Part shown: positions 6,924 through 38,992 of the stretch, piece by piece
Layout of the letters: each line of letters begins with the position of its first letter
Numbering within the stretch: the first letter of the stretch is position 1
IMG/VR virus record: IMGVR_UViG_3300045976_000096
Span: 48,423 to 112,422 of that record
From: a virus
Direction: 5' to 3' (one strand)
Length of the DNA: 64,000 nucleotides
The notes under the pieces: model-generated
Seen by the model: the letters and a program-made list of their open reading frames with translations, nothing else
What the model was told of the DNA's origin: nothing
The model's database searches: none
Translations under genes and position numbers: made by a program

Positions 6924-7009
6924 ATCCGCGCACGCTCCAGATATGGGCGTGCATAATACCACCATGACAACAACGTCATGACTGACTTACTTAACCACAT
7001 GGAGAAAAT

Positions 7010-22194: not shown

Positions 22195-22494
22195 ATGCAG
22201 CAAGTCAAGACCTTATTTCCGCCCGCCAGCCTGCAGCGCGACGCCTGGTTCGGGTACGCGCCGCAGCTGGTCGCCGCCTACCGCGCCGGCCAGTACCGCG
22301 CCGGTCCCGCCTTCTACACCCGCAAGGCGGGCGAGGACGCGGTCGAGGAAGCGTTCGACCTGTCCAACAACCCGTCGCGCCAGGACGAGCGCGACCTCGT
22401 GTTCGGCGACCACCGCAGCGTTTCGGTTGGCGACATCGTGGAGGTGGGTAGTGATGCCTACCTGTGCAAATCCTCGGGCTGGGAGAAACTGTGA
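22195..22494 (+). CDS. hypothetical protein (YodL-like RSVSVGDIV motif)
   Basis: EEAFDLSN...RSVSVGDIVEV...YLC...GW. Confidence 0.7.
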   Translation: MQQVKTLFPPASLQRDAWFGYAPQLVAAYRAGQYRAGPAFYTRKAGEDAVEEAFDLSNNPSRQDERDLVFGDHRSVSVGDIVEVGSDAYLCKSSGWEKL

Positions 22495-22811
22495 TGCTGT
22501 GGATGATCACCGGCGACAAACTGCACAGGGACGGCCCGAACCTGATCGGCCGCTGCGGCGACGACCTGTGCGCGAGCCTGGGCGACATTCGCGTGCCGCC
22601 CACCCGGCAGCCCGGCATCAAGGCGGACTGCAACTACGATTTCCGTCTGCTCGATGGCGACGGCGAGCATTGCTTCACCGGCGTGTGCAAGGATCTCGAC
22701 GACCAGGATGGCGACGCCGCCTTCGAGCCGCTCGACATGTTCATGCACGGCTTCGGCGTGGTGGAAATGCAGTACCGGAAGAAAGGCGAGAAAGAATGGA
22801 AAACACTGTGA
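22494..22811 (+). CDS. hypothetical protein
   Basis: FRLLDGDGE motif; coupled. Confidence 0.7.
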   Translation: MLWMITGDKLHRDGPNLIGRCGDDLCASLGDIRVPPTRQPGIKADCNYDFRLLDGDGEHCFTGVCKDLDDQDGDAAFEPLDMFMHGFGVVEMQYRKKGEKEWKTL

Positions 22812-23044
22812 ACCCCGCCGAGCGCATCACCGACACCATGCTGCAGGCAGCGCTCGGCGTCGACGACCTCGACGAGGCGATCGGCACCATCATGGAGCAG
22901 GTCGGCATTACCGATGGCGGCATCGCCGGGATGGTATTCTCGGGCGCCTACAACCACGACTGGTGGCGCGAAGCTGACCGTCAGGACCGCTTGTGGAAGC
23001 TGTGCGAGTGGCGCGACTACGAACAGACGCTCGCCTGCATTTAA
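22808..23044 (+). CDS. hypothetical protein
   Basis: GTGA overlap. Confidence 0.65.
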   Translation: MNPAERITDTMLQAALGVDDLDEAIGTIMEQVGITDGGIAGMVFSGAYNHDWWREADRQDRLWKLCEWRDYEQTLACI

Positions 23045-23099
23045 CGGATTTTTACAATGACCGGCATACCGCCGGTCACTTTACCAAGAGGAAGTGAAG

Positions 23100-23483
23100 A
23101 TGTGCCAAACTGAAAACAAAACCCCGGCCCTGTCGCTGGAAGCGAACCTGCTGGCTGCCCTGCTGGGTCGCGGCATCGCCCTCGACGTGGCCCAGGCGGC
23201 GACCAAGGACGTGATCACCACCTTCGCCAACAGCGAGGTGGCGCACCCGTGCTGGGCCGATCAGGTGCGCGGCATTGCGCCGGCGGAGAGCATCGAGGAA
23301 AAAGAGACCACCCAGGCCAGCATCGACCCGGACGGCACGATGGAGCTGTTTCCCGGCGTACGCGTGCAAGTCGTGCGCATCGGCGAGGACGACAAGCCGG
23401 AAGACGTCACTGCCGGCATGCCAGAGAGCCTGAAGGCGGTGTTGCGCGGCATTGCCACGACGCTGGAGGCGCGCCGCAAGTAA
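23100..23483 (+). CDS. hypothetical protein
   Basis: GAGGA RBS. Confidence 0.7.
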   Translation: MCQTENKTPALSLEANLLAALLGRGIALDVAQAATKDVITTFANSEVAHPCWADQVRGIAPAESIEEKETTQASIDPDGTMELFPGVRVQVVRIGEDDKPEDVTAGMPESLKAVLRGIATTLEARRK

Positions 23484-23511
23484 CCCACAGACAACTTGAC
23501 ACTTAGGCAAG

Positions 23512-23537
23512 AAAAGCAGGCTTCACGCCTGCTTTTT
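23512..23537. terminator. bidirectional intrinsic terminator
   Basis: aaaagcagg-cttcacg-cctgcttttt. Confidence 0.75.
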
Positions 23538-23859
23538 GCGTGATAAAATCCCTCCTAGGAAAAGTTCTTTGAAATCAAGGACTTACGCCAATCTTATTGC
23601 GGAGTAAGTGCGGGCCTAACGCTGAACTCCTGCAACCACAAACCAGCACAGCAGGTCAGCACGCGCGACACCGTCGGAAAGGGCATCAGAACGCGCTACA
23701 AGCGCTTGGATTGACCCGGTTGATACCCGCACACCACCCAGCGCAAAAACGTCTCAAAAGCCCGATTTTGCGTTTTCAGGCTTGACCATTGCCGGGCACA
23801 ATCCGCGCACCGGGCGCTACACTTGCGTATCGAGTACTCAACCATACGAGGAGAGCAGG

Positions 23860-24138
23860 ATGAACGGCTACCGGGTAGCGAACGACATGGAGTACAAGCT
23901 GTACCAGGAGATTACCGGCCCGAGCGTGGCCATGATGGAGAACGGTGCCGGCATGCGGGAACTGGAGCGGGCGGTGAAAATCGCGGAAGCCCGGCTCGAG
24001 CGCCTCGGCATGGTGACGACCCAGGCGGGCCTGCTGGTGCGCGACGACCAGGACATCTTGGATACCGACGACCTGACCGCCGCGGCAGCACGACTGAAGA
24101 TGTTCGACATCCTCAACAGGGTCATGCAGGCTCCCTAA
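23860..24138 (+). CDS. hypothetical protein
   Basis: GAGGAG RBS. Confidence 0.65.
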   Translation: MNGYRVANDMEYKLYQEITGPSVAMMENGAGMRELERAVKIAEARLERLGMVTTQAGLLVRDDQDILDTDDLTAAAARLKMFDILNRVMQAP

Positions 24139-24275
24139 GAACGCGACCTACCGGCGCAAGGAAATTATAGCCCGGATTGCAATCGACGCAACTTATCGCG
24201 CCGCAACGCTTCCGAAAATAATTGTTTAAGCTGTAGAAGTATGAAATACCTATAGAAAGCAGAGGAGAGTGATAA

Positions 24276-24581
24276 GTGAACGCACCGGCCCCAAGTCCAC
24301 GCCCGCCGCTACATTTCATCGTGTGGCGCGTGACCTACAGCAGCGGCAGGACCACCGTCTCGGCGATCGACAAGAACCAGTTCGAGGCGCACATGGAGGA
24401 AAGCCCCGACTACCTCGACGGCTCGGCCTGTGTGAAAGCAATCAGCATCGCCGAGGCGGAAGACCTCGCGCGTGATCCGAACCTGTGGGAACCGATCCCG
24501 GCCCACGTAATCGAACAGGCACAAGAGCAACACCGGCAAGCAAAACTCGCGGCCAAGGCCCATTACCCGGCCGCATGGTAA
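24276..24581 (+). CDS. hypothetical protein
   Basis: GAGGAG RBS, GTG start. Confidence 0.6.
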   Translation: MNAPAPSPRPPLHFIVWRVTYSSGRTTVSAIDKNQFEAHMEESPDYLDGSACVKAISIAEAEDLARDPNLWEPIPAHVIEQAQEQHRQAKLAAKAHYPAAW

Positions 24582-24612
24582 GCGAAACCACCAGGCCACA
24601 ACAAGGAAAACC

Positions 24613-24978
24613 ATGAAACCCGAATACGAACAGGCCTTGAAGGAAGTCGCCGACCTGCACAACGAAATGTACCGGATGCGGCGGCAAGCGGACAACAAGC
24701 TGCGGCAACTCGTCAACGACCTCGTCAAGGAAGACAACCCGCACACGATCATGGAAATGCTCAGGAAGATCCCACCAGGCCCATACCGCATGGAACTGAG
24801 CATTCACCACGCCGACCGGCTTCAGGACAAGAACTACCGGCACCGCAGCGAACAGGCAGCAATCAACCTGCCCAACGCACGCACGCAATGGAACAACGCA
24901 GTGAAAGGACTGCTGCACGGCACACCAAACGGCATCATGACCACATACACGGGAGGAACAGGAACACCACGACGGTAG
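24613..24978 (+). CDS. hypothetical protein
   Basis: AAGGA RBS; T-poor coding strand. Confidence 0.65.
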   Translation: MKPEYEQALKEVADLHNEMYRMRRQADNKLRQLVNDLVKEDNPHTIMEMLRKIPPGPYRMELSIHHADRLQDKNYRHRSEQAAINLPNARTQWNNAVKGLLHGTPNGIMTTYTGGTGTPRR

Positions 24979-25162
24979 ACAGACATCATGACCACCATAC
25001 CGGTCCTCACATACACATCACATGCCTGTGTAGAGACAAGGATTGCATGGGCACATGGAAGGATCGCCTGGCGACGTATTGCCTCCTTCAATCCACCCGC
25101 AATCCCGGCTTTCCTTCCGTTCTCCCTATGAGAACACCCCGTTGCCAAGGCGGTAGCGGGTA

Positions 25163-25178
25163 TGTTTCACGTGAAACA
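25163..25178. other. parS: parS site (chromosomal ParB/Spo0J consensus)
   Basis: Perfect TGTTTCACGTGAAACA palindrome, intergenic. Confidence 0.88.
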
Positions 25179-25579
25179 TCGCTATAAGGATCGATCCTCG
25201 GCCCGCCTTGGCCCTATAAGAACGCGGCTTTCATCCTATAAGGACACTCTTATACTTTGACCCGAAATCCTATAAGGATGGGGTTGCGCCTAGGCGAAAA
25301 CGACTCTTATACATTATATCGCGACAGCAAACGGCAGCTGCGGCGACGGGTAATCCGAAGTTTCGCGCGGGCGCGCGGAAGGGCCAAGGATCGCCTAGGA
25401 ACCCACCCGGCCACGGCGTGCCGAGGCTTTCCTAGGCCCAGGGAGCGGACGATGCCTGCGGTGCGCCAAGGATTTCCTAGGCCCTCGCCTGGTCGGTGAG
25501 ACGGGCGTGAACGAGCCACCCACGCGCCGCACCTGCGCGGTCATACTACGTTCTCACCAACCACACATGAAAGCACAGC

Positions 25580-25870
25580 ATGACCCTCTTACACATCACC
25601 ACGGGCGCCGAGACCGAAACCGAAGGCACGATGGTTGTCGTCTTCAACGTCACCGAGAACGGTAAGCCTTACGCCCAGATCGCGACCGAGTCCAACAATG
25701 ACGACCAGTGGGCCAAGATGCAGGTCACGCTCGCCGCGGGCGTCTACGTCGATCCGCTGTGGGTGCAGGTCGAAGCGATGAAGGCGGTGTACGACGTCCT
25801 GAACCGCGACGGGTACAGCACCTTCGCCGACCTGTTCGCCGAGGTCGGGCACATCGTCTTCGAGATGTAA
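25580..25870 (+). CDS. hypothetical protein
   Basis: CATACT box upstream. Confidence 0.7.
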   Translation: MTLLHITTGAETETEGTMVVVFNVTENGKPYAQIATESNNDDQWAKMQVTLAAGVYVDPLWVQVEAMKAVYDVLNRDGYSTFADLFAEVGHIVFEM

Positions 25871-26029
25871 GGCGATCACACCGGTTCGCACCGGTGTTTG
25901 TCTCCCAGGCCATGCCAAGGCTTGCCAAGGCTTGCCGGCCACCCTTGAGGACGCTGCGAACAAGCCACCCACCCGCCTGTGTCGGGTGGGCATAATGGTG
26001 TTTCTTCAACGACACATGAAAGGGACATC

Positions 26030-26374
26030 ATGCACCATGTACAGGCCACCATCACCCATTACAGCAATGCCCAGGCGCGCAACCAAGCTGTCGGCTTATC
26101 GGCCTTGCGCGCGCTTGCGCACGACCCGGCCTGCAAATTCTACGCGCACGACGGGAACGACTACCTGATCGTCGAGACCGAGCTTGCGGGCGCGCCTCTG
26201 TACACCTTGATCGTGCTGACCAACCTGATCGACATCGGCGCGCACAACGGGATGCAGAAAGTCGAGACCGGCCTGGGCGACGTCATCGCGCTGTTCAGCA
26301 CAGGCATCTACCACGAAGCGCTTGCTGAGGCGCTGCAGATCATGAAAGACGATGCAGGCCTGCACGACGAATAA
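26030..26374 (+). CDS. hypothetical protein
   Basis: CATAAT box, AAGGGA RBS. Confidence 0.7.
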   Translation: MHHVQATITHYSNAQARNQAVGLSALRALAHDPACKFYAHDGNDYLIVETELAGAPLYTLIVLTNLIDIGAHNGMQKVETGLGDVIALFSTGIYHEALAEALQIMKDDAGLHDE

Positions 26375-26573
26375 AGTACAAGGCGGTTGTGAGGCCCAGT
26401 GCTGACCTGGGCCTCGAAACGCTGACCTAAAATTGCCTAGGCGACAATGGGTCCGCACGCCAACGCTGACCCAATGCTGACCGGCGTGCTGAAGGAAGGC
26501 TGACCTGGGCCACGCACACGCCTCACCTGGCTTGCGACAATGGGTCTTCACCAACCACACAGCAGAGGTTTTC

Positions 26574-26801
26574 ATGTCCAAGTTCTACAACTTCCGTCCC
26601 GAAACCATCAACGGCGTGACCATCCCGGCCGGCACCGCCTTACGCGACCTTGGCGACGGCGCCATGCCCCAGATGCTCCGCTTTGAATTGCCGACCAGCC
26701 TGCACCACTGCGGCATGCGCCACATCGACCTGTATCCACATCAGGTCGGTGACAGCGCCTTGTATGACGAGTTCGCGGCAGCGATGCGCGACCGGCCGTA
26801 A
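26574..26801 (+). CDS. hypothetical protein
   Basis: GAGGT RBS, terminator at about 26811-26832. Confidence 0.65.
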   Translation: MSKFYNFRPETINGVTIPAGTALRDLGDGAMPQMLRFELPTSLHHCGMRHIDLYPHQVGDSALYDEFAAAMRDRP

Positions 26802-27068
26802 CAAGCCACAGGCGCCCACCAGGCGCCTTTTGTATTGACCGGGCCACGCCAAGGCTTTCCTAGGCCGTTACGAGGCCGTACGCCGGCCACCAGGCGCAAG
26901 CCAGGCCACCAGGCTTGCCGAGGCCACAGCCAGGCCATAGGCCGTGCGGCGGGCGCGGGATGGACACGGGTATGGATGATGTGACCGGGCCAGCCACCCG
27001 CCGCAGCTGCGTCGTCATACTGTGGTCTCTGCTGCGATGTGCAGCGCAACCCACCCTAGAAAGAGACC

Positions 27069-27263
27069 ATGAGCACCTTACTGACCTGCCTCGCGACCCT
27101 GATGCACGCCCAGCGCACCCGTACCGTACCGGCATGCGTCGACGTGCGTGAAAGCACCCATCTGGTCCTGTGCAACGACAGCGGGCGCGTGCTGGGCCTG
27201 CAGCGCAGTGTCACTATGCAGGGCCGCACCTTCTCCGCCGCCATCGAGCAGGTGATCGCATGA
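27069..27263 (+). CDS. hypothetical protein
   Basis: Follows leader hairpin at 27031. Confidence 0.6.
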   Translation: MSTLLTCLATLMHAQRTRTVPACVDVRESTHLVLCNDSGRVLGLQRSVTMQGRTFSAAIEQVIA

Positions 27264-27436
27264 ACGGCTACAGCCTCACCGACTTCGACCCGACCCCGCG
27301 CCTGTTCTACTCGCAGCGCGCCAGGGTATGCCACGGTTACACGTTCTGCCAAGGTCCGTTCGTGACAGACGACTTCGGCAACAGCGTGCGGGTCAGCAAC
27401 GACAGCCTGACGCACTACCTGCGCCAGAGCCATTAA
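27260..27436 (+). CDS. hypothetical protein
   Basis: ATGA overlap; terminator at about 27457-27481. Confidence 0.55.
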   Translation: MNGYSLTDFDPTPRLFYSQRARVCHGYTFCQGPFVTDDFGNSVRVSNDSLTHYLRQSH

Positions 27437-27673
27437 GCCAGCCGCATAGCCACATCAAGGGCGCCGACCGGGCGCCCTTTATATTGCGCCACCCAGTTGC
27501 CAAGGAAGCGCCTGTCACTGCGCTGCAGGAACACCATGCGAGCACGCCTTGGCAACGCCAGCCGCGGCGAAGGTATTCCGTGGACGTTCCGCTTTCAACG
27601 CCAGCTGCGGCGACGTCATATGCAGGATTTGTCGCGCCGCCCTCGCGCCTTGGCATGCCGGTCGCGACAGAGG

Positions 27674-27883
27674 ATGATTCACATGCGAACCATTCACATG
27701 CTAATAGTTCGTAACCTAACCATTTGCGTGCTAATGATTCGCATACACATAGTTCGCATACGAACCATTCACATGCTAATGATTCGTATGCTAATCGTTC
27801 ACATGCTAATCGTTCGCGTGCTAATGATTCGTATGCTAATCGTTCGCATGTGAACAGTTGACGTATCAACAGTTGAATACGCA
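27674..27883. repeat. 15-bp tandem array (12 clear + 2 degenerate units)
   Basis: Units such as atgattcgtatgcta, atcgttcacatgcta, accattcacatgcta at exact 15-bp period. Confidence 0.92.
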
Positions 27884-28231
27884 AGTAACCCGAATCGGGT
27901 TTAGCTCACCTGTGACTGACCTTGTCAATAGGTCATTGACCAATGCACAAACAAATTTCTTGCGCAAGCTGTGCATTTGTACAGTAAAAACCACTCTTGT
28001 ATAAGACATGGTCAAACTGACAATTTTAACGCTTGTAAGTCATTGATTTTAAAGCGAACCCTCTAGGTTCAACGAACAGACAGGTCCCGGTATGGTTCTA
28101 TCAACAAAGGGAAAAACCTCACCACGGGCTTAAAAAGGGCATTTGCGGGCATATATTTTTGCGTGATGTTTTTGTGCGTCTACATGACATCAGAATCTAA
28201 TTTCACGCATAAAAAAAATCACGCAAAAGTA

Positions 28232-28260
28232 TTGACCTGGCAATTTTCGATCTGTATAGT
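28232..28260 (+). promoter_or_regulatory. strong sigma70-type promoter with A-rich UP element
   Basis: TTGACC-17bp-TATAGT, A8 tract upstream. Confidence 0.8.
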
Positions 28261-28410
28261 TCTATTCATGCACTGACGAACACAACGATTCGCAGCGCTG
28301 CGCAAGCAAGTGGTTACATAACCCGCGCGCCCGGTACTGTGGTTCGCTCTCGCAGATACTGACCGGGCAAACAAAATACTCTTTCACAACATTATATAAA
28401 GGTAACTATC

Positions 28411-29097
28411 ATGGGTAAGCAATTGAAAGCTGCAACTATCGTTAACAAACTGGGCGCAGCAGTCGCACAGCGCGTGCAAGCGCTGAAAGACAACGAGACG
28501 CACGTCGCGACCGAGTTTAAGGGCATCTTAGCGTGCTACGCGCCCGACGGTAACAATCGCGGTTCGTTCGAGCGTGCAATCGAAAGCGTGAAAGATCAGA
28601 TCGATTTTGACTTCTTAATCAAGATCATCGGTAAGCACGCAGAAACGGGCAAGAACGACCCGAACTATGTGCAAGCAAAAACGATTGTGAAAATCAATCG
28701 CTTGCTATTCGGTCTCGCAACGAAAGACATGCGCGCGCTCGACAACCATTCGCGCTCGTTGATCGTGAATGCAACGCTGAATGGTAAGCTCTCTAGCAAA
28801 GCAGCGTTCGCAACGCTGGTACGTGTTCAATGGGGGGAAGAGATCGAAGAAGCGCTGCGCGAGCGTAACAACTACAGCGCGGGTACGGGTTCGACGCAAC
28901 TCTCTAGCACAAAAGAAATGATGCGCGTTTTGGGATTAAGCGACAACCCGAAGGGCACGAAAAACGCAGACTTCGCTTTCACCGACGAAGCTCGTACGCT
29001 ACTGTGCGAACGGTTCGCGCGTCTCGCAGAACTGGTCAAGACCGCTGACAAGATCGATGCAGAGCTTGACGCAGCAATCGAAGAAGCAGCAGAGTAA
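28411..29097 (+). CDS. hypothetical protein, probable immediate-early gene (paralog of 15361 C-domain)
   Basis: AAAGGT RBS; NYSAGTGSTQLSS motif; atypical codon usage. Confidence 0.85.
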   Translation: MGKQLKAATIVNKLGAAVAQRVQALKDNETHVATEFKGILACYAPDGNNRGSFERAIESVKDQIDFDFLIKIIGKHAETGKNDPNYVQAKTIVKINRLLFGLATKDMRALDNHSRSLIVNATLNGKLSSKAAFATLVRVQWGEEIEEALRERNNYSAGTGSTQLSSTKEMMRVLGLSDNPKGTKNADFAFTDEARTLLCERFARLAELVKTADKIDAELDAAIEEAAE

Positions 29098-29100
29098 ATC

Positions 29101-29130
29101 ACAAGGGCGCACTACGGTGCGCCCTTGTTT
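29101..29130 (+). terminator. hairpin/terminator overlapping parS
   Basis: acaagggcgcac-tacg-gtgcgcccttgt-tt. Confidence 0.75.
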
Positions 29131-29141
29131 CACGTGAAACA
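29126..29141. other. parS: parS site (second perfect copy)
   Basis: TGTTTCACGTGAAACA. Confidence 0.88.
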
Positions 29142-29156
29142 CACAAGGGAAACATC

Positions 29157-29330
29157 ATGCACAAGATCGAAGAATACGACGAGCAAAGCGACGAATTCAC
29201 GGTGCGCGCACCTGACGGGACGCGTTATTTCGCTAACGCAGAAACACTCGCGCATATGCTGAATCATTACGACGAACCGAGCGCGTTTCTTGGTATGCAG
29301 TTCACTACAACCATTAAGGTGCAAGCATGA
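29157..29330 (+). CDS. hypothetical protein (57 aa)
   Basis: AAGGGA RBS; MHKIEEYDEQ...IKVQA; below ORF-track cutoff. Confidence 0.65.
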   Translation: MHKIEEYDEQSDEFTVRAPDGTRYFANAETLAHMLNHYDEPSAFLGMQFTTTIKVQA

Positions 29331-29593
29331 AAAGCGAATATCTGAAACAGCAGCGCGCGACGCGCAACGACGAGATCACGCTGTGCGTCGTCGCGCTGCT
29401 GTGTGTCGTGCTGTGCATGGGCGTGCTGATTAACGCAGCAATTGAGAGTGAACAGCGCGCAGCGCAGCGCGCGAGCGACGCACGGTTAGCGCGTACGGGT
29501 TCGCGCTTATGCTTGCAAGACGGTCGCACGATTGACCAAATGCGGTTTGACGAACCCGTACGCGCGATGTCTGCGCGTTGGTGCAAACGTTAA
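29327..29593 (+). CDS. small membrane protein
   Basis: ITLCVVALLCVVLCMGVLI TM segment. Confidence 0.7.
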   Translation: MKSEYLKQQRATRNDEITLCVVALLCVVLCMGVLINAAIESEQRAAQRASDARLARTGSRLCLQDGRTIDQMRFDEPVRAMSARWCKR

Positions 29594-29603
29594 GGGGAAA
29601 GAC

Positions 29604-29831
29604 ATGACTGACTTAGAAAAAGCAATGCAAGAGTTCGCAGCGCGTAACGGTGTGACGCAATGCGCACCCGTCACGAGCGCGAAGCAAGCAAACGAGCTTG
29701 CGAAAGCGCGACGCGTCGAACAGCGCGAACGCGAACGTGCAGAACGCGCTGCGCGCTGCGCAGAACAGAACGCAGAGAACGCGCGCTATGATCGCGAAGG
29801 TGTGTGGTACGTGGGCGGGTTCGCATCGTAG
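29604..29831 (+). CDS. hypothetical protein
   Basis: AAGGGG RBS; hairpin at 29848-29875 downstream. Confidence 0.7.
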   Translation: MTDLEKAMQEFAARNGVTQCAPVTSAKQANELAKARRVEQRERERAERAARCAEQNAENARYDREGVWYVGGFAS

Positions 29832-30051
29832 CACATACGCAACAGTAGCACGCACCGCTTGACACGGTGCGTGCGATATGCGATGTCTTAGAAAAATTTT
29901 CAACCCGAGGAGGCCCTGCCTTCCTCGACTTCCGGTCTCCGAACACCCTTCCTTACAGAATCCTGGGCGGCCGCAAAAGCCAATCCTTATACATCCAAGA
30001 TCCAAACATCCACGATCCAGGATTCCACATTTCCCCACTTATCCCCGCAAT

Positions 30052-30456
30052 TCACCAGTTATCCACAATCCCCTTGGGCCGATCCTTCGACGCCAGGCGC
30101 GAGCCATCGAAACGCCCGGCCGGCGCTGCCGCGCCTCGCCGGGGTACGTCCTGCGCGCGTGGAATGATTGCCGCCTGAATGAACAGAGGCTGGACCTCCC
30201 ATTCTGCTTTCGACTCGAATGACCGGTTGCCGCTTGGGACCAGCGCCAGGTAATTTTCCCACGACAGGTCGCGATCCTTCTGCAGGGCCAGGCACTTGCC
30301 GACCAGCTCCTTGATGATGCGCTTTTGCTCTAACGGCCAGACGCCATCCCACCTATGGGCAGGCATGTCGCCGTTCTCCTGCTCGCCCAGCTGACGCCGA
30401 AGGTACAGGTAGTCCTCGTAGTTCGGGAAGGACAGGATTTTCGCCAGGTCTCTCAC
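30052..30456 (-). CDS. small protein, two Y..Y...W helical repeats, tail SKDRPKGIVDNW
   Basis: GTG start coupled to upstream stop. Confidence 0.7.
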   Translation of the reverse strand: MRDLAKILSFPNYEDYLYLRRQLGEQENGDMPAHRWDGVWPLEQKRIIKELVGKCLALQKDRDLSWENYLALVPSGNRSFESKAEWEVQPLFIQAAIIPRAQDVPRRGAAAPAGRFDGSRLASKDRPKGIVDNW

Positions 30457-30656
30457 CAGATCACCTCCACGACGGTTTGCGGCCTGTCCGAGCCGGCGGC
30501 GCCTTGCGTTCTCGGGGTGCGCCGCACTTCCTCGCGCAGCTCCTCCATCATGTCCATCCGTGCTTTCAGGGGCATGGCGCGCCAGACGGCCTCTGAAATC
30601 GGCTCGTACTTGAGCGCCAGCGACAGCTCCACGTAGCGCTGGTAGGTGTTCACCAT
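30453..30656 (-). CDS. small protein, tail SDRPQTVVEVIW
   Basis: MVNTYQRYVEL...; coupled. Confidence 0.75.
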   Translation of the reverse strand: MVNTYQRYVELSLALKYEPISEAVWRAMPLKARMDMMEELREEVRRTPRTQGAAGSDRPQTVVEVIW

Positions 30657-30871
30657 ACGACGTCCACCGGGGTTTGCGGTTGATCGCCCTTCGGTTGGGC
30701 GGTGGCGCGCGCACGGTCGCGCATGACGCGCTGCTGGTGCTGTAGAACGTTGATCGTGATCTTGCGCATGATGGGCTTCATGTCGGTCCAGGCGTTGGCA
30801 TCGATGCAGACTTCGTTGTCGAAGTGCCCGGCCAGCCAGGTGCGCATGTAGTCGTCGTAGGAGATGTTCAC
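30650..30871 (-). CDS. small protein, tail GDQPQTPVDVVW
   Basis: MNISYDDYMR...; coupled. Confidence 0.75.
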   Translation of the reverse strand: MNISYDDYMRTWLAGHFDNEVCIDANAWTDMKPIMRKITINVLQHQQRVMRDRARATAQPKGDQPQTPVDVVW

Positions 30872-31056
30872 CAGTGGTCTCCGCCAAAACGTTCCAGTTC
30901 CTTGTTGCGTCGGTCGACGGCAGCCTGCATCTGGGCCACCATGCTCTCCTGCGCCTTCTGATCACAGCCATTCCAGACGTGCTCTGCAATAAGGCCGAAA
31001 TCGTCGTCGAACCCGGCTTCCACGCGCAGTCGGCGGTAGCGCTGGTACAGGCTCAT
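30868..31056 (-). CDS. small protein, tail FGGDHW
   Basis: MSLYQRYRRL...; coupled. Confidence 0.75.
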   Translation of the reverse strand: MSLYQRYRRLRVEAGFDDDFGLIAEHVWNGCDQKAQESMVAQMQAAVDRRNKELERFGGDHW

Positions 31057-31244
31057 GCGTCACCCCGCTGCCAGGCGATGAAGTCCTCGGTGCCGTCGGC
31101 AAAGCCGCGCTCCCAGGCCTCGACCAGCACGGGTGTAGTGTACGGACAGGCCGGCACTTCCGTGACCAGTTCGTAGCGCCCGGTGCGCCAGCCGGCATCG
31201 AGACCGTCGGCATAAGCGTCGGCGTCAGCGGTCCACTTCACCAT
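31053..31244 (-). CDS. small protein (G..AG...CPY...AW..GF, Rmf/CrpP-like pattern)
   Basis: AYADGLDAG...CPY...AWERGF. Confidence 0.65.
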   Translation of the reverse strand: MVKWTADADAYADGLDAGWRTGRYELVTEVPACPYTTPVLVEAWERGFADGTEDFIAWQRGDA

Positions 31245-31582
31245 ACCACCTCCACCGTGGTCTTCGGCGTGTCGCCCTTGCCGGTAAGCCGGTCAATCTC
31301 GTCCTGCGACGCCTCGCGCCACTCGCCGGCGCGCACGCTGGTGTCGATCGTCACGGTGGTATAGGTGATGTGCGGCACGGCACGCCCATCCCGGAACATC
31401 AGTCGCCCGGTATGGGTATCGTGACCCGGCTCGAAGTCGATGCAGATGGCGCGCAAGGTGTCGCGCCAGGTGCCGTGCGGACCCTGCACGAAGTAGCGTT
31501 TCATCACGTTCTTGCGCTGGCCACTGTCGTCGGCAGGCCTGCCGGCGCCGGCCACGCCGAGCCAGTCGATATTCGTCACCAT
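31238..31582 (-). CDS. small protein, tail GDTPKTTVEVVW
   Basis: Coupled; MKRYFV domain paralogous to the 32099 gene. Confidence 0.7.
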   Translation of the reverse strand: MVTNIDWLGVAGAGRPADDSGQRKNVMKRYFVQGPHGTWRDTLRAICIDFEPGHDTHTGRLMFRDGRAVPHITYTTVTIDTSVRAGEWREASQDEIDRLTGKGDTPKTTVEVVW

Positions 31583-31782
31583 GCGTCCACCCCGTCGGTC
31601 TTGGGTTTGTCGCCTCTTGGTGTGCCGGGGTCGACCTGGGCCTGCTTGGCCAGCGCCACGATGACGTTGCGGCGTTCCTCCTCGGGAACCAGATCGTTCC
31701 AGATCTCGTACGTGGCGGGCCTGTCCGCGCGCTTGGCCAGCCGGCACAGGCGCAGGTAGTTGTCGTAGCTGGTGTCTACCAT
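31576..31782 (-). CDS. small protein, tail GDKPKTDGVDAW
   Basis: MVDTSYDNYLRL...; coupled. Confidence 0.75.
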   Translation of the reverse strand: MVDTSYDNYLRLCRLAKRADRPATYEIWNDLVPEEERRNVIVALAKQAQVDPGTPRGDKPKTDGVDAW

Positions 31783-32099
31783 GCTCCGCCCTCCACTTCG
31801 GTTTGCGGCACGTCGGGCAGACGCACGCGCGCGCCGGCCGCCATCTTCAGCTGGTACTCGCTCGGCTCGAAGTAGGCGTTTTCGTTGTTAGGCTCCTGCA
31901 GCACCTCGATCATGGTGCCGGATTCGACGTGGCTCATCACGTCCTTGAAGCTCCACGGGCAGTGTACGGCGACGCTGCCATCGTGCTTGATGCCGCGCCG
32001 CGTCGTGATCGCGCCTTCTCCTTCGCCGAAGTCGAACTCGATGTGGTGAATGCGGTCGTTGATCGGCTTGGCGCCTGGCAGCATGAACACGCGCTTCAT
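31776..32099 (-). CDS. small protein, tail PDVPQTEVEGGAW
   Basis: MKRVFML...; ATGA overlap. Confidence 0.75.
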   Translation of the reverse strand: MKRVFMLPGAKPINDRIHHIEFDFGEGEGAITTRRGIKHDGSVAVHCPWSFKDVMSHVESGTMIEVLQEPNNENAYFEPSEYQLKMAAGARVRLPDVPQTEVEGGAW

Positions 32100-32377
32100 G
32101 GCGTCACCAGCGCCTCGACCTGGGCCAGCGCCTCGGGCGGCAGCGTGCGCAGCTTGGCGGCAAGCTCGCGCGCGCGGGTGCGGGCATCCAGCTTGTGCTG
32201 GCGCCGGGCCGCGAAGATGTGGTCGACATTGTCCAGTCCGCCGATGATGTCGAGCATGACCTCGATCGCCTCGCCCTGCGTCAGCTTGTGGGTCTTGGCC
32301 AGCTGGTTCAGATGCTCGCGCGCTTCGGCGCTCAGGTCGATGGTGTAGCGCGGGCGCGCCGGGTTGGTGGTGCCCAT
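32096..32377 (-). CDS. putative ribbon-helix-helix DNA-binding protein
   Basis: RYTIDLSAEAREHLNQLAKTHKLTQGEAIEVMLD; TATAAT and GGAGA upstream. Confidence 0.65.
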   Translation of the reverse strand: MGTTNPARPRYTIDLSAEAREHLNQLAKTHKLTQGEAIEVMLDIIGGLDNVDHIFAARRQHKLDARTRARELAAKLRTLPPEALAQVEALVTP

Positions 32378-32440
32378 GTTGTTTTCTCCCTATAAGGTTC
32401 AGTGACAACTGATTATAACGCACGCGCAAACTTATCACGC

Positions 32441-32466
32441 AAAAAAAGCGCCCCGAAGGGCGCTTG
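32441..32466 (-). terminator. intrinsic terminator
   Basis: aagcgccc-ttcg-gggcgc-ttttttt on minus strand. Confidence 0.8.
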
Positions 32467-32489
32467 AAAGGCACTACATGGGAAAGGAG

Positions 32490-32693
32490 TCAGGCGATGT
32501 CGGCGGTGAAACCGATCGGCTTCGAGTCGTCATCGTCGTCGCCGCCCTGCACCATGAAGCGGGGCAGCTCGGGGCCGTGCGCGTCCATCTGCAGAAAGGT
32601 CAGCGCCAAGAGCGCCAGCGGGTTCTGCAGCCAGACGACCACGGCCAGGATGGCCAGGACAATCATAACATTAACGGCCAGGGTGGATTTCAT
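32490..32693 (-). CDS. small membrane protein with acidic tail
   Basis: Hydrophobic N-half; DDDDDSKPIGF; AAGGA RBS. Confidence 0.7.
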   Translation of the reverse strand: MKSTLAVNVMIVLAILAVVVWLQNPLALLALTFLQMDAHGPELPRFMVQGGDDDDDSKPIGFTADIA

Positions 32694-32756
32694 GATGGTC
32701 CTTGGATAAGTCAGCGGTGAACCAACGGTAACACGCCGGCGCCGGCTGCGCAACCC

Positions 32757-34496
32757 CTACGCGGCCGTCATCAAGACGGGAAAGCCCAGCGCCGCCAGGT
32801 CCACATCGCGCCCGTGCTCGTGGATGAAGCGGTCGAACCCGGCAGTCTCCTTGATGATGCTCTGGCGCTGCTTGGCGTGCAGTTTCAGATGGTCGTTAAA
32901 GTCGTCGGCGAAGTCGGTCACGAAACACAGGTTCGGCCCCTTCTTTTTCGCCCGCAGGCCGCGCCCGATGCGCTGCCTGAGCGCCACCTCGGCCTTGCCG
33001 CCGCCGGCCAGGCAGACATGGCCCACGGCCGGCACGTCCACGCCCACGTCGAGGATCGTGGTGCCGATCAGGACGTCGATGTCGCCGGCGGCCAGGCGCG
33101 CAAGCGCGCGCTTCCGCTCGTCCTGGTCGTTCTCGCCGCGGATGAAGCACACGCGCAGGCCGGCCGCGCGCATGGCGGCTTCCAGCACGTCGCCATGCTT
33201 GGTCTGCTGGATCAGAACCATCGAGGTCAGGCCGTGGCGCGCGAACATGCTGCAGCGGTCCACGATGATGTCGTTGCGGTATTCGTTCTCGACGATGCCG
33301 ATCCGGTACGCGCTCTGCCAGCCGGTGCCGCGAAACAGCTTGGCCGGCTTGTGGCGCAGCTGGATGAAGGTGAAGTGCGGCTGCGCCAGGATGCCGCGGT
33401 CGATCAGCATTTCCTCGCTGATCTTGATGGCGATCGGGCCGGAGCACGCCATCAGGCGCATGTTCGATTCCTGGTCGCCCTTCATGAACGGCGTGCCGGT
33501 CAGCGCCAGGCGGTAATAGGCGTTCTTGCAGTGTTTCAGGATCTGGTAGTAGCTCTCGCCCGACGCCTCGTGCGCTTCTTCGAGAATCACGAGACCGAAA
33601 CGCTCCAGCAGGGCAATTACGCGCGCGCGCTCGCGCATATGTTCGTTCACCTTCACCGCGGCATCGGCGCGCAGGCTGGCCGCGATCTTCTTGCGCTCGA
33701 TTTCCTGGTTTTGCTCGAATTCCTTGAGCAGGCGACGCTTTTCCGCCGGCGGCGTGCGCAATAAACCGAGCTTCGTCTCGTATTCCTTGTAGTCCTTGAG
33801 TTCTTTCTTGACGCGCGCGTCCATCATTTTTTCGAGTTCGCCCTCGACGGTCTTCTCCTCGACGCGCGCGGCGAGCGTCTGCACCATGCCGACGCAGATT
33901 TTGCGCACCGCGCGCCCGCCGCCCGCCGTCTCGTGCCCGAACTGGCCGTCGCCCAGCACGGAGCAGGCGGTGCCCATTTCCTCGAACGCGTCCTTCATCT
34001 GGTACATCAGGATGCCGCGCGTGGTCAGGAACAGGGTCGGCAGGTTGATCGAAGCGTAGGCCATGCGCGCGATGCGGCTCTTGCCGCCGCCAGTGGCCAC
34101 GCGCGCGATGATCTGGCCGTGCTTGCGCAACTGCTTGACCACCTCCGGCTGGTAGTCGTAGCGCGGATCGTAGCCGAACGAGTCGATGTCGGGACGCTCC
34201 GGCCCCTGCGGCTCGGGCAGGGGGCGCTTGACGTGGCGCACCTGATAGCCTTGCGCGCGCAGCTTGGCCGAGACGTAATGCACGAAGCCGGCCGGGAAGG
34301 TGCCGGCGCGAAAGTCCAGGAACGAGCTGCGGCCATCCCAGTTGCCCTTCTTGAAGGACATGACGTGCTCGGCGCCGGCAACCGCGTACGAGAGAATCTC
34401 CTGGACCGCCAGCTTGACCACCCGGTCGGGGTCGTGCAACTTGGCGATGACGGCGTTACTGGCGATTGTGATTGTAAGGCTCATTGCGCTTGCCAT
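32757..34496 (-). CDS. superfamily 2 (DExH-type) helicase
   Basis: ATGGGKS, ILEEAH, LTGTP, GVDVP, QRIGRGLR motifs. Confidence 0.93.
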   Translation of the reverse strand: MASAMSLTITIASNAVIAKLHDPDRVVKLAVQEILSYAVAGAEHVMSFKKGNWDGRSSFLDFRAGTFPAGFVHYVSAKLRAQGYQVRHVKRPLPEPQGPERPDIDSFGYDPRYDYQPEVVKQLRKHGQIIARVATGGGKSRIARMAYASINLPTLFLTTRGILMYQMKDAFEEMGTACSVLGDGQFGHETAGGGRAVRKICVGMVQTLAARVEEKTVEGELEKMMDARVKKELKDYKEYETKLGLLRTPPAEKRRLLKEFEQNQEIERKKIAASLRADAAVKVNEHMRERARVIALLERFGLVILEEAHEASGESYYQILKHCKNAYYRLALTGTPFMKGDQESNMRLMACSGPIAIKISEEMLIDRGILAQPHFTFIQLRHKPAKLFRGTGWQSAYRIGIVENEYRNDIIVDRCSMFARHGLTSMVLIQQTKHGDVLEAAMRAAGLRVCFIRGENDQDERKRALARLAAGDIDVLIGTTILDVGVDVPAVGHVCLAGGGKAEVALRQRIGRGLRAKKKGPNLCFVTDFADDFNDHLKLHAKQRQSIIKETAGFDRFIHEHGRDVDLAALGFPVLMTAA

Positions 34497-34555: not shown

Positions 34556-35206
34556 ATGCCCACCACTCTCCTGCAGGACATCGACCCCCGGCTGCTGCAG
34601 CCGAACCCCTGGAACACGAACGTCGTGTCGCCTGACAACGAAGCCAAGATCGACGCCTCGGTCAAGCGTCTCGGCATGTTCAAACCCATCATCGTGCGCA
34701 CCCTCCCTGACGGCACCCTGCAAATTCTCGGCGGCGCGCACCGGCGCGATTCCGCGATCCGCCTGCACATGACCACCGTCCCGGTGATCAACCTCGGCAT
34801 CATCGACGACAAGAAAGCCAAGGAAGTCGGTATCGTCGACAACGGCCGCTACGGCGAAGACGACACGCTGGGCCTGGCCGAATTGCTGGAATCGCTGGGT
34901 TCGCCCGGCGAGCTGGCCGAATTCATGCCGTTCACGAACGCGGATTTCGAGTCGATCTTCGCTTCAAGCAATATAGCACTCGACGAGCTGGATTTGCCCG
35001 ACGAATCCGGTTCGCCGGCACCGTCGCCTGCAACCAAGCCTGCCCAGACCCACGTCGTCATGCGCTTCAAGGTGCCACTGGGCGACGACGGCATGATCGC
35101 CGACGCCATCGCGCAGGTGCAGAAGCAGCAGGGCTTCACCGACGAGGACGCGCTGTCCAACGCCGGCAACGCCCTGGTCCACATCTTCAAGAGGGCGGGG
35201 TACTGA
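34556..35206 (+). CDS. ParB/Srx N-terminal domain protein
   Basis: PNPWNTN...G...PIIVR...ILGGAHR. Confidence 0.88.
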   Translation: MPTTLLQDIDPRLLQPNPWNTNVVSPDNEAKIDASVKRLGMFKPIIVRTLPDGTLQILGGAHRRDSAIRLHMTTVPVINLGIIDDKKAKEVGIVDNGRYGEDDTLGLAELLESLGSPGELAEFMPFTNADFESIFASSNIALDELDLPDESGSPAPSPATKPAQTHVVMRFKVPLGDDGMIADAIAQVQKQQGFTDEDALSNAGNALVHIFKRAGY

Positions 35207-35207
35207 C

Positions 35208-35375
35208 ATGCCCAAGGCCCGCTTTGAATTCTGTGACGCCTGCGTCAACAGCGAAATTCCCTACGAGTGCGTGACCTGCAAGGACGGCAGCAAGTTCGAG
35301 GCGGCCGACGCCGTCGAGGAGCTGACCGTCCACGAGCTGCGCATGATGACCATCCCCACCGAAGACGACGAATAA
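35208..35375 (+). CDS. small Cys-rich protein
   Basis: CDAC...CVTC. Confidence 0.6.
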   Translation: MPKARFEFCDACVNSEIPYECVTCKDGSKFEAADAVEELTVHELRMMTIPTEDDE

Positions 35376-35674
35376 TGGACAACCAACACAGAAAAATTCG
35401 TGGCTACCGCGAGCTGTCGCAGGCTGAAATCGACCTGATGAACAAGATCAAGGAACAAGGCCTGGCCCTGGCAGCGCTGATCACCGAGGTCCAGCTGCAC
35501 CACAAGGCCCAGCGCGCGGCGTGCACCCAGACGCCGACTGCCGCCGGCGACGAGCAAGAGCAGGAGCGCCTGCGCCTGGCCGAGCCGGAGCGCTGGGCCT
35601 CGATTGGCCGCACCCACTTCCAGGAAGGTCTGATGGCCTTGACGCGCAGCGTGGCGCAGCCGGGGTTCTTCTGA
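35375..35674 (+). CDS. acb2: Acb2-family anti-CBASS cyclic-nucleotide sponge
   Basis: MDNQHRKIRGYRELSQAEIDLMNKIKE...AEPERWASIGRTHFQEGLMALTRSVAQP, recognisable Acb2 pattern. Confidence 0.88.
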   Translation: MDNQHRKIRGYRELSQAEIDLMNKIKEQGLALAALITEVQLHHKAQRAACTQTPTAAGDEQEQERLRLAEPERWASIGRTHFQEGLMALTRSVAQPGFF

Positions 35675-35792
35675 TGACGCCCGCTGACGTATTCGTCTGG
35701 ACCTGCACGATCACGACATGCTGCCTGGTTGTCGGGGCCGGCGTGGGCCTGCTGGCGCTTGGCTTTAACGCGCTCGAAAAGGAGATTTTCAA

Positions 35793-35975
35793 ATGATCGC
35801 CTGGTGGATTCTACCGCTGGCCATCAGCGTGTCCTGCCTGCTTACGATCGCCTGGTGGTGTGACGAGAACATGCCCTACCGCAGCCTGATGGCGGCCGTC
35901 GCAGTATTCCTCGCCATCGTGCCGAACGCCATCGTCTGGGTGTTTGCCTTCCTGATTTCCCGAATGATGCCATGA
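35793..35975 (+). CDS. small two-TM membrane protein
   Basis: Hydrophobic; AAGGAG RBS. Confidence 0.6.
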   Translation: MIAWWILPLAISVSCLLTIAWWCDENMPYRSLMAAVAVFLAIVPNAIVWVFAFLISRMMP

Positions 35976-36619
35976 CCGACCACAACATCCAGATGTGGGA
36001 CACCTCCCGTCCCAAACCCTACGCGCTGAACGCCAAGATTCACGACGACGCGCAGGTGACGAAGATCGCCGCCTCGATCCAGAAGTTCGGTTGGCGCGGC
36101 AATCCCATCGTCGTCGACGAGAACGAGGTGATCCTGGCCGGCCACGGCCGCCGCCTGGCCGCCCTGAAGCTGGGCCTGAAGCAGGTGCCGGTGGTCCAGA
36201 TGAAGGACATGACCGAGGACGAGAAGCGCGCGTATCGTCTGGCCGACAACCGCGTCGCCATCTCGAACCTGGACGCCGACATCCTGGCTCAGGAAATCGA
36301 GGGCCTGGACTTCGACCTGAACGAGTTCTTCGACGCCAAGGAAATCAGCTTCGTCACCGCCGACCTCGGCACCCTGAACGAAAGCGCCTTCGTGGCCGAC
36401 CTGGACGCGGAAATCGACGCCCAGAGCGCCGAGACGACGGCAACGATCGCCGCGGCCGCCGACAAGCCGGTGCCGGTCGCCAAGGCGCTCGGCTTCAAGA
36501 CCATCAAGGGGGCCGACGAACGGGCCGTGGCGCGCTTCATGGCCACGATCGAGGCCGACACCGGCAAGACCGGCGTCGACGCCTTCATGGCCTTCGTACG
36601 TAGCGTGGTGGGCAAATGA
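35972..36619 (+). CDS. ParB/Srx N-terminal domain protein (phage methylase-associated type)
   Basis: PYALNAKIH...SIQKFGW...PIVVD...ILAGHGR..AA...YRLADNR. Confidence 0.9.
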   Translation: MTDHNIQMWDTSRPKPYALNAKIHDDAQVTKIAASIQKFGWRGNPIVVDENEVILAGHGRRLAALKLGLKQVPVVQMKDMTEDEKRAYRLADNRVAISNLDADILAQEIEGLDFDLNEFFDAKEISFVTADLGTLNESAFVADLDAEIDAQSAETTATIAAAADKPVPVAKALGFKTIKGADERAVARFMATIEADTGKTGVDAFMAFVRSVVGK

Positions 36620-36777
36620 GGGACGACGTCTGCTTCTGGATTGCCCGCCATCTGCCGCGGCGCCTGGTGTACTGGTGCGCGGTGCGTCTGATGGCGCATG
36701 GCGCCGCCGCCAACCCGACCCGCGAAGTGCCGGCGATGACCGGCATCGACTACCTGATGGCTTGGAGGAAGCGATGA
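36616..36777 (+). CDS. hypothetical small protein
   Basis: WIARHLPRRLVYWC; coupled both ends. Confidence 0.6.
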   Translation: MRDDVCFWIARHLPRRLVYWCAVRLMAHGAAANPTREVPAMTGIDYLMAWRKR

Positions 36778-36956
36778 CCGAGCTGAAACGCGGCCGCCTG
36801 ACCATCAGGGGCAACCAGACCACGAAGGGCTTCGGCTGCCACTGCAGTGGCCCGGCCTACGGCACCGAGTTCTGCCTGTGCGAACTGGCCCGGATGCAGG
36901 CCGAGCAGGAGGAGCGCGGTGACGATGACGACGATTACGAGGATCGCAAGAAATGA
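36774..36956 (+). CDS. small Cys-rich protein
   Basis: CHCSGP...CLC. Confidence 0.55.
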   Translation: MTELKRGRLTIRGNQTTKGFGCHCSGPAYGTEFCLCELARMQAEQEERGDDDDDYEDRKK

Positions 36957-38472: not shown

Positions 38473-38530
38473 CCATGTTCCATACGCTCGCACACAAGCA
38501 GACCCGCCCGGTCGACACCAAGGAGAAGAA

Positions 38531-38884: not shown

Positions 38885-38992
38885 GCTGGATGGCCATCCT
38901 GATGATCATCTTCGGCGGAGGCAAGAAGTGAATACCGGCCTTCTAATTTTGGTGATTTTAGCAATCATGATCTGGTTTTTGAGGGGTCGCAA

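Follow-up and report, generated by a model that had tools for sequence, protein, structure and literature searches.

The DNA analyzed here, hereafter the window, is a 64,000-nucleotide stretch of the IMG/VR virus record IMGVR_UViG_3300045976_000096 (positions 48,423 to 112,422) and takes up the final 64 kb of a viral record of 112 kb that was judged complete. Its portal, terminase, tape measure, and tail genes group the phage with SSU5-related siphoviruses and phage-plasmids, the portal sharing 52-56% identity with its counterparts in SSU5, Cyrano, Pseudomonas phage nickie, and Rhizobium RHEph10-like phages. At 27675..29907 lies an island, without strand, in which the degenerate tetranucleotide HGGM (H = A, C, or T; M = A or C) and its complement KCCD are matched only once in 2233 bp. 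This loss is conserved in related phages of several genera and implies that some DNA reader, whose specificity the missing word reports, must be kept off the island DNA.

The island opens with a 15-bp tandem array (27677..27850, no strand; 11.6 copies plus a 45-bp superperiod), which occupies an extra 0.57-kb upstream motif-free stretch that is not present in relatives. This is followed on the + strand by a sigma70-type promoter identified by sequence match, TTGACC-17-TATAGT (28232..28260), a gene for a 228-residue helical protein with a winged-helix-like model (28411..29097), and, directly after the gene, a hairpin with a 12-bp stem (29101..29128). A perfect parS site, TGTTTCACGTGAAACA, is found at 29126..29141, and another copy, likewise without strand and recognized by sequence match, lies to the left of the island at 25163..25178. 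The remaining + strand genes comprise a 57-residue open reading frame (ORF; 29157..29330) with homologs in two related loci (L007 and L008), an 88-residue small protein with a hydrophobic stretch (29327..29593), and a called 75-residue ORF (29604..29831); most Massilia-type relatives carry a small hydrophobic ORF at the position of the second. A first-pass annotation had placed the 15-bp array, a sigma70 promoter, and a parS site in this segment, and all three were located. No Pfam, NCBIfam, or PHROG function was assigned to the island genes, no homologs of the phage T5 genes A1, A2, and dmp were detected among them, and an Rfam search of the region returned only sub-threshold chance matches.

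The same annotation had noted by eye a single HGGM/KCCD word between two flanking AGGA sites. Counting bears this out, and the effect is stronger than first claimed. The 64-kb window contains 5140 HGGM/KCCD words (0.080 per bp, or one per 12.5 bp), and the sole match between 27671 and 29908 is a TGGC at 28238, leaving gaps of 567 and 1670 bp; the second-largest gap is 111 bp in the window and 139 bp in the whole 112,422-bp record. As had been proposed, six word pairs are affected: AGGA, AGGC, CGGA, CGGC, TGGA, and TGGC, each taken with its complement, are observed 0-1 times vs 14-71 expected, whereas GGGA, GGGC, GGGG, NGGT, and NGGG remain near expectation and 126 GG/CC dinucleotides are kept.

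At the genome rate, the 2233-bp island should hold ~179 such words, compared with the one observed. Expectations from a mononucleotide shuffle (105.5 +/- 9.2), a first-order Markov model (70.1 +/- 8.3), and a second-order model (15.7 +/- 4.3) are lower but still far above this count. For the 228-residue gene, which contains no such word, resampling codons by genome usage gives 52 words (minimum 39), and a permutation of the gene's synonymous codons yields 24.2 +/- 3.3 (minimum 14). The excess under codon permutation and the Markov models indicates that selection acts on the DNA word rather than on base composition or ordinary codon bias, as the first-pass annotation had argued; an artefact of AT-richness or codon usage is thus ruled out, even though the G+C content is 50% in the island vs 62.6% elsewhere. 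The word loss is a strand-symmetric, DNA-level selection that spans coding and non-coding DNA alike.

The cost of this purge is borne by codon choice, by ribosome-binding sites, and even by amino acid composition. None of the 63 Ala codons in the island genes is GCC, GGC and GGA occur solely after G, the base following a Trp codon is always G or T, and TCC is absent, in agreement with the codon pattern first described. The ribosome-binding sites of all four genes read AAGGT or AGGG(G)A, without AGGA or GGAG. One-off hypermutation was likewise rejected, since the substitute ribosome-binding sites and codons are functional and the island has been conserved. A related proposal, that the island is the footprint of, or a guard against, a CC-context cytosine deaminase acting on often single-stranded DNA, is scarcely credible. 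It would accommodate the drop in G+C content and the presence of a uracil-DNA glycosylase domain fused to the phage polymerase; however, AGGT, AGGG, and GCA/GCG are functional replacements in ribosome-binding sites and codons, not simple C-to-T products, GGG/CCC and ACC are spared, and the edges of the island are sharp and coincide with functional elements.

Conservation of the island across phage genera

The 228-residue protein has 16 homologs at 45-84% identity. Eight distinct loci were found in metagenomes, viral contigs, and a Massilia genome, all of them syntenic with the window. Seven of these eight show a single 1.06-1.2 kb gap with the homolog at its centre, and their remaining gaps do not exceed 230 bp; in the locus truncated by a contig end, the word-free gap is at least 857 bp, and the leakiest locus (L006) has three words over about 0.94 kb. 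L015, a syntenic locus encoding a remote homolog (28% identity), places that homolog within a 1,030-bp gap. In total, the desert is present in nine of nine syntenic Massilia-type relatives. When nine islands were pooled (10.8 kb), HGGM words numbered 5 vs ~807 expected, and the other NGGN words stood at 0.5-1.2 of expectation, with TGGG the lowest at 0.28. These counts define the purged word as exactly H-G-G-M.

Massilia-type loci share a common order, in which small + strand early genes are followed by palindrome arrays, a sigma70-type promoter, a leader of ~170 nucleotides, the island gene, and a hairpin; beyond the hairpin come zero to three small ORFs (usually one small hydrophobic) or non-coding DNA, then an edge element and a convergent operon. 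The islands extend past terminator hairpins and non-coding DNA as far as the conserved edge element. In L015, the island runs 235 bp beyond a strong intrinsic terminator, so the transcript alone does not set the island limits. At the other end, words are tolerated in the -35/-10 spacer of five of ten loci, including the window, whose one surviving TGGC falls there, but none occurs after the -10 box. The parS site, which had been counted as part of the feature, has not kept that status: it lies within only two of ten Massilia-type islands (the window and, among the relatives, L007 alone), which rules out parS/ParB spreading as a general cause.

One close relative resides in the isolate Massilia sp. 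TN1-12 on a separate 112,962-bp contig, roughly the size of a whole phage genome; a search through 401 genomes from the host's order turned up no other match. Hence, Oxalobacteraceae are the hosts of this lineage, which probably persists there as a plasmid prophage. In addition, short contigs from a third, independent soil metagenome run (X3) are identical to parts of window 25962-28932, that is, the island and its left flank, indicating that the same phage was present in a second study. Searches of an annotated phage collection with the region (blastn) and with the 228-residue protein and two remote homologs (tblastn) returned no matches.

Whole-genome gap-scans extended the observation to other genera. 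A single HGGM desert was detected in Pseudomonas phage nickie (103936-105098; 1,162 bp) and in Rhizobium phage RHEph10 (99008-100081; 1,073 bp), whereas scans of SSU5, Cyrano, and Stenotrophomonas phage ANB28 yielded none. The prediction of the first-pass annotation that relatives would carry a comparable desert thus holds for Massilia-type loci, Nickievirus, and RHEph10. The nickie zone includes 1,137 bp without any GG or CC (~150 expected), and the body of the RHEph10 zone retains a single ACCA; a few words of the GGG/CCC type, compatible with the HGGM rule, persist at the right end of each zone. The Nickievirus members nickie, ZY21, Nican01, and hairong share ~66% DNA identity, yet all have a GG/CC-free zone of 1,083-1,137 bp encoding a protein of 183-192 residues with zero Gly, Pro, or Trp. 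In RHEph10, the zone ORF (188 residues; one Gly, no Pro or Trp) is encoded on the opposite strand, with transcription directed away from a GTCTTAGA element. Both the nickie and RHEph10 zones end at GTCTTAGA, followed by iterons, and GCCNNGGC arrays are found nearby in both. Across the whole set, island length is ~1.03-1.2 kb in 10 of 12 lineages regardless of content.

Comparison of the island-position ORFs of nickie, RHEph10, and ANB28 with the 228-residue family and with each other (hhalign and BLASTP) gave nothing significant. RHEph10 does encode a member of that family (hhalign 96%), although the gene lies 2 kb away from the island and has a normal density of the word. Given a family member outside the island and ORFs inside it that are not detectably homologous to the family, the island belongs to the locus and is not strictly bound to one gene family. 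Two RHEph10 annotations in NC_034248.1 appear to need revision: gp097 (99105-99785) seems to have been called on the opposite strand to the real ORF, which has a GAGAGAAACGATC-ATG start and occupies the - strand (L055:4696-5262), and gp103 (96170-97060) is in the wrong frame, the family homolog occupying another frame at 96345-96950. In ANB28 (PQ434692.1, 105500-107750), HGGM is mildly depleted at the island-equivalent position (observed/expected 0.44-0.6), in a stretch that adjoins AAGCTGAACG iterons and a GTCTTAGG element; this could be a relic or a weaker form of the island.

A GG/CC-core word is thus purged in phages of Beta-, Gamma-, and Alphaproteobacteria. Since phages of unrelated hosts have this core in common, the simplest assumption is that the reader comes from the phage lineage itself or is a host factor of universal occurrence; a strain-specific restriction enzyme is unlikely. 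Phylogenetic profiling of ORFs between island-bearing and island-less genomes gave no clean candidate for the reader. For the Nickievirus and RHEph10 islands only, one might invoke a zone free of protospacer-adjacent motifs (PAMs) as a defense against type I-F CRISPR-Cas (clustered regularly interspaced short palindromic repeats), whose PAM is CC. Total loss of this PAM would look like the dinucleotide purge on both strands, and T5 is CRISPR-sensitive solely in its first-entering DNA (10.1101/866236). Nevertheless, this explanation is very unlikely, given that a 1-kb PAM-free patch protects only if the rest of the genome is shielded. For the window island it was ruled out, since the 126 remaining GG/CC dinucleotides leave CC PAMs plentiful.

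Flanking repeats, the island protein, and the candidate reader

Besides the wider GG/CC-free form in other genera, two features of the locus had been missed by the first-pass annotation, namely, arrays of palindromes built from the doubled word and a conserved element at the right edge. The arrays occupy early-gene intergenic DNA at 25144..27654 (no strand) and consist of 8-bp palindromes of the form KCC(W/N)(W/N)GGM, each made of two abutting, inverted purged words (KCCD+HGGM) and often spaced exactly 10 bp apart. Examples include 25383-25437, 25465-25482, 25914-25931, 26848-26865, and 27499-27654, with forms such as GCCAAGGC, TCCTAGGC, and GCCATGGC. KCCWWGGM is concentrated here, with 18 of its 45 genome copies falling in window 23.5-27.65 kb, the ~4 kb to the left of the island. 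In the array regions of nine loci, 74% of NCCNNGGN words have K..M ends and 51% have a WW centre, compared with backgrounds of 36% and 17%, respectively. The arrays adjoin the island promoter upstream in all Massilia-type relatives. The early genes left of the island have in common a promoter-like element, GCCACCC-N16-17-CATA(C/A)T, which lacks a TTGACA-like -35 box and is found 50-130 bp downstream of a palindrome array in each case (window 25516-25553, 25961-25996, and 26990-27025).

An alignment of nine loci places the right edge of the island at 29885..29925 (no strand). Here, a GTCYTAGA pseudo-palindrome (29885-29892), which can fold as a hairpin in some loci only, is followed by an invariant block, GGCCCTGCCTTCCT (29912-25), the sequence CTTCCG, and two TCCTTATA boxes; GTCTTAGA marks the right edge in nickie and RHEph10 as well. 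The conserved element is word-dense, and the island stops there. Beyond it, at 29991..30070 (no strand), ATCCA repeats resembling iterons were identified by sequence matching, along with a perfect DnaA box, TTATCCACA (30059-30067). The iterons are lineage-specific, being CCCAATTCCCC in relatives and CCCCTTACACAACCA in nickie. A convergent operon of small genes on the - strand (30052..34496), headed by a superfamily 2 (UvsW/RecG-like) helicase gene (32757-34496), completes the region.

An origin-like border of this kind raises the possibility, improbable on balance, that KCCD is the start site of a DnaG-type phage primase, a pppGGM primer being copied from 5'-KCC-3' with D as a cryptic base. 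The ~1.1 kb beside the origin- or terminus-like element would then be unprimable on both strands, for example while single-stranded during initiation or concatemer formation. Consistent with this idea, the phage encodes its own replication set, comprising a DnaB-like helicase, a DnaG-type primase (a DNAG_N domain protein at genome 16137-17240), a DNA polymerase III (Pol III) alpha subunit, and a ligase, together with ribonucleotide reductase. Moreover, a trinucleotide plus a cryptic base matches the format of AtTwinkle (PMC5737085) and Aquifex aeolicus (PMC2532735) primase sites, the purge affects both strands equally whatever the gene orientation (as RHEph10 illustrates), and the island, of near-constant length, borders on iterons and a DnaA box. 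On the other hand, orthologous primases (41-46% identity) are found in the island-less SSU5, Cyrano, and ANB28, no KCCD/HGGM strand skew was detected around the putative origin, the palindrome arrays are left unexplained, and the benefit of an unprimable zone is conjectural.

The first-pass annotation had instead proposed a modification-free zone. In this model, a bulky modification at HGGM would mark virion DNA, and the island would stay unmodified for immediate reading by host RNA polymerase. Short degenerate motifs are indeed typical of phage base-modifying enzymes, the island bears a host-type promoter, and a conserved cluster encoding two ParB_N proteins, an ABC ATPase, and thioredoxin lies 5-10 kb away. 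Even so, we regard this model as quite improbable, and a mark on virion DNA is not supported. No member of the N6/N4 (PF01555) or C5 (PF00145) methyltransferase families or of the TGT/DpdA transglycosylase family (PF01702) was found in the 112-kb genome, the remaining phage genes would all need to be transcribed from modified DNA, and the ParB/ABC cluster has orthologs in nickie, in a comparison with that island-bearing phage. What stands of the earlier interpretation is the selection itself, its conservation, and the proposal that the depleted word reveals the specificity of a DNA reader, which the purge of both strands in coding and non-coding DNA bears out; the virion mark, the terminal repeat, and the role of parS are unsupported.

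The ParB/ABC cluster itself (window 34556-40262; nickie 3383-7187) is conserved and adjoins terS/terL upstream. It encodes two ParB_N proteins (one labeled 'DNA methyltransferase' in nickie), a 218-residue ABC ATPase, thioredoxin, a 325-residue protein (PHROG 886), and a small helix-turn-helix protein. The 325-residue protein could not be assigned to a family and had no match in a PDB sequence search, and Pfam detected no GNAT/Mom-like domain in the cluster. Between the two ParB_N-domain genes, a 145-residue protein (window 35237-35671, +) carries an Acb2/Tad1 hairpin domain (PF24729, E 5e-17) and is likely an anti-CBASS/anti-Thoeris nucleotide sponge; a GIY-YIG and NUMOD3 homing-endonuclease-like gene (37602-38159, +) is located between the ABC-type ATPase and thioredoxin genes. 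Outside the window, the 1180-residue Pol III alpha (27411-30953 of its own genome) ends in a uracil-DNA glycosylase superfamily domain (PF03167, residues 1031-1164), and the replication module (22465-25779 of its own genome) contains a CobT-like VWA protein (661 residues) beside a MoxR/CbbQ-type AAA+ ATPase (429 residues).

The AlphaFold2 model of the 228-residue island protein has a mean pLDDT of 84.7. Its residues ~95-207 resemble the winged-helix DNA binders MarR, PadR, ORC-WH, TubR, and AspA, although with VIA Z-scores of 5.6-7.7 over residues 95-217, a range that is commonly reached. Foldseek found no match in the PDB at E<=0.001, the protein matches no Pfam or NCBIfam family, including Rep_3 and other initiator families, and all Atlas look-alikes of the model are labeled 'hypothetical protein'. 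The motif GTGSTQLSST(K)E is invariant in 17 close homologs. A profile search expanded the family to ~130 clusters, over which the Ser/Thr/Gln-rich helix, GT(G/A)STQxSST(K/R)E, is conserved, its Gly being replaced by Ser or Ala in members with little Gly, Pro, and Trp. The wide family alignment has five invariant positions, R21, K94, T159, Q163, and K181, none of them acidic or His; judged from the alignment, this pattern would suit a DNA binder better than an enzyme. Of 147 retrieved family proteins, the median Gly, Pro, and Trp content is 5.9%, and six have two or fewer such residues, with none at all in two, so the trait is widespread in the family.

The reading we tentatively favor, at less than even confidence, is that a DNA-binding protein encoded by the phage lineage reads HGGM/KCCD, and that the island is kept free of its half-sites. 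In this scheme, the SSU5-related siphovirus/phage-plasmid lineage would maintain an island without the 4-bp half-site of its own DNA-binding protein, whose dimers would occupy the KCCWWGGM arrays and which may be the island's own product. Reaching a high local concentration at the arrays, the protein could also sit on single half-sites, by spreading or as a roadblock. A transcription unit that must stay open beside the arrays, plus the flank of the origin-like element, would then have lost every half-site, by analogy with chromosomal zones lacking nucleoid-occlusion sites, here at 1-kb scale and with a 4-bp word.

Several observations support such a site-free zone, namely, arrays consisting of the same degenerate half-site, 10-bp phased and intergenic; tolerance of words in the promoter spacer with none past the -10 box; an island gene product modeled as winged-helix-like with a conserved Ser/Thr/Gln-rich helix; and the near-complete loss of the exact word HGGM in the pooled islands. 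Purging of the same core in phages of three proteobacterial classes further argues that the reader was inherited with the phage lineage rather than supplied by a strain-specific host enzyme, and the lack of a canonical DNA methyltransferase or transglycosylase in the genome was also counted for a binder. The site-free zone is the sole model that makes use of both the arrays and the binder-like island protein.

Other observations weigh against it. A 4-bp half-site should bind weakly, such that loss of every copy requires the assumed spreading or roadblocking, and the rest of the genome, including genes that need to be expressed, has the word every 12 bp. The RHEph10 family member lies outside the island, whose ORF is on the other strand and has no detectable homology to it, and the nickie island protein likewise shows no detectable homology to the 228-residue family. 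The winged-helix Z-scores are in the common range noted above. Finally, a near-constant length of ~1.03-1.2 kb fits a physical or length-based cause better.

Such a cause is offered by a nuclease-immune, T5-like pre-early or terminal segment, in which the island would be in the cell, or would have to stay intact, while a CCD-like frequent cutter or nicker is active. The enzyme would be a nuclease, either one with which the phage degrades host DNA or one common among hosts, and the rest of the genome would be guarded by late entry or by an island function. Although we consider this reading unlikely as a whole, it gives the best account of purge severity and of the near-constant ~1.1-kb length: the purge overrides Shine-Dalgarno sequences and all Gly, Pro, and Trp of the Nickievirus protein, a pressure akin to that of lethal cleavage. 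The consensus host promoter on the island is in keeping with this, as are the flanking palindrome and repeat arrays and DnaA boxes, which recall the T5 injection stop region; T5 itself offers a precedent in that sensitivity to EcoRI and CRISPR is confined to its first-step-transfer DNA (10.1101/866236), and Nt.CviPII (^CCD) is a frequent nicker with nearly the same 3-bp degenerate site (PMC3017599).

Against this reading, neither a nuclease family in the island or its surroundings nor a protecting methylase was found, although an enzyme of a novel type may be present, and neither acidic residues nor His occur at the wide-family invariant positions of the island protein. Among the records and contigs recovered, none begins at the island or holds it twice, which also leaves the earlier suggestion of a genome end or terminal repeat unsupported. 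The terminase genes and likely cos region are 10-14 kb away, the related Massilia element occupies its own ~113-kb contig of whole-phage-genome size, and the double-site arrays are left unexplained.

Taken more broadly, it is possible, if doubtful, that a ~110-kb siphovirus/phage-plasmid lineage carries a new GG/CC-core DNA reader, whether a primase, a binder that spreads, or an enzyme that nicks or cuts frequently, and that a ~1.1-kb cassette is absolutely protected from it. A word loss so local, complete, and deeply conserved is an unusually clean signature, as it gives the exact specificity of a reader protein and marks the DNA that escapes it. It also illustrates that a rule at the DNA level can dictate protein composition, as in the 183-192-residue Nickievirus proteins. 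Because the signature is present in cultured Pseudomonas syringae Nickievirus phages, Rhizobium RHEph10-like phages, and a Massilia isolate, the rival models can be separated experimentally. Any of them, if true (insulator, nuclease immunity, primase-free, or modification-free), would constitute a new design principle for phage early regulation or replication, and if the cassette is the first to enter or act, it would represent a second, independent case of T5-like staged infection with a target word readable from sequence. The gap-scan can be applied to other genomes to find further readers of short words.

Comparison with known systems

No description of such an island was found in the literature searched. 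SlmA and Noc, the nucleoid-occlusion proteins, have motifs of 12-16 bp and chromosomal zones of hundreds of kilobases that lack them. The island would resemble these zones in that its function would be set by the absence of a DNA-binding protein's motif, but its word is 4 bp and its zone 1 kb. The island also recalls iteron plasmid replicons, with a gene for a winged-helix-like protein of ~230 residues beside direct repeats and a DnaA box, and with the Massilia element on a separate ~113-kb contig; in contrast to them, the island protein has no match in any known Rep family, its fold matches extending to a generic winged helix only, and the purge has no counterpart in known replicons.

Primases initiate at short words, such as 5'-GTC-3' for that of T7, and to our knowledge no primase-site-free zone has been described. 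The likeness of the island word to primase sites lies in its degenerate 3-4-nucleotide format with a possible cryptic base, as in 5'-(G/C)GGA-3' for AtTwinkle (PMC5737085) and CCC/GCC for Aquifex aeolicus (PMC2532735).

Genome-wide avoidance of restriction sites is common in phages. Strand-symmetric loss of a short word links the island to this phenomenon and to the Nt.CviPII/M.CviPII pair of chloroviruses, in which Nt.CviPII nicks frequently at a 3-bp degenerate site, ^CCD, of which KCCD is a subset (PMC3017599). The differences are that the loss described here is local to one cassette, with normal word density in the rest of the genome, and that, unlike the Nt.CviPII system, no nuclease or methylase gene was found and the purged word also forms phased arrays resembling binding sites.

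Further parallels are with T5, in which only first-step-transfer DNA is sensitive to EcoRI and CRISPR targeting, indicating that target sites in that segment are selected against, and whose injection stop region contains untranslated repeats, palindromes, and DnaA boxes (10.1101/866236). In both systems, a short segment that contains host RNA polymerase promoters and a handful of small early genes adjoins a complex untranslated region of repeats, palindromes, and DnaA boxes; the T5-type traits at the present locus are the TTGACC-17-TATAGT promoter, the 15-bp array, the palindrome arrays, and the TTATCCACA box at 30059. The T5 segment, however, is a mapped terminal repeat of ~10 kb that avoids specific 6-bp sites, whereas the island is known from assembled sequence, measures ~1.1-2.2 kb, and is purged of a degenerate 4-bp word or a whole dinucleotide. 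What is new relative to T5 and to restriction-site avoidance is thus the target, a degenerate tetranucleotide or an entire dinucleotide, together with the completeness of its loss, the small and constant size of the patch, and a conservation across genera that extends to the composition of the encoded proteins.

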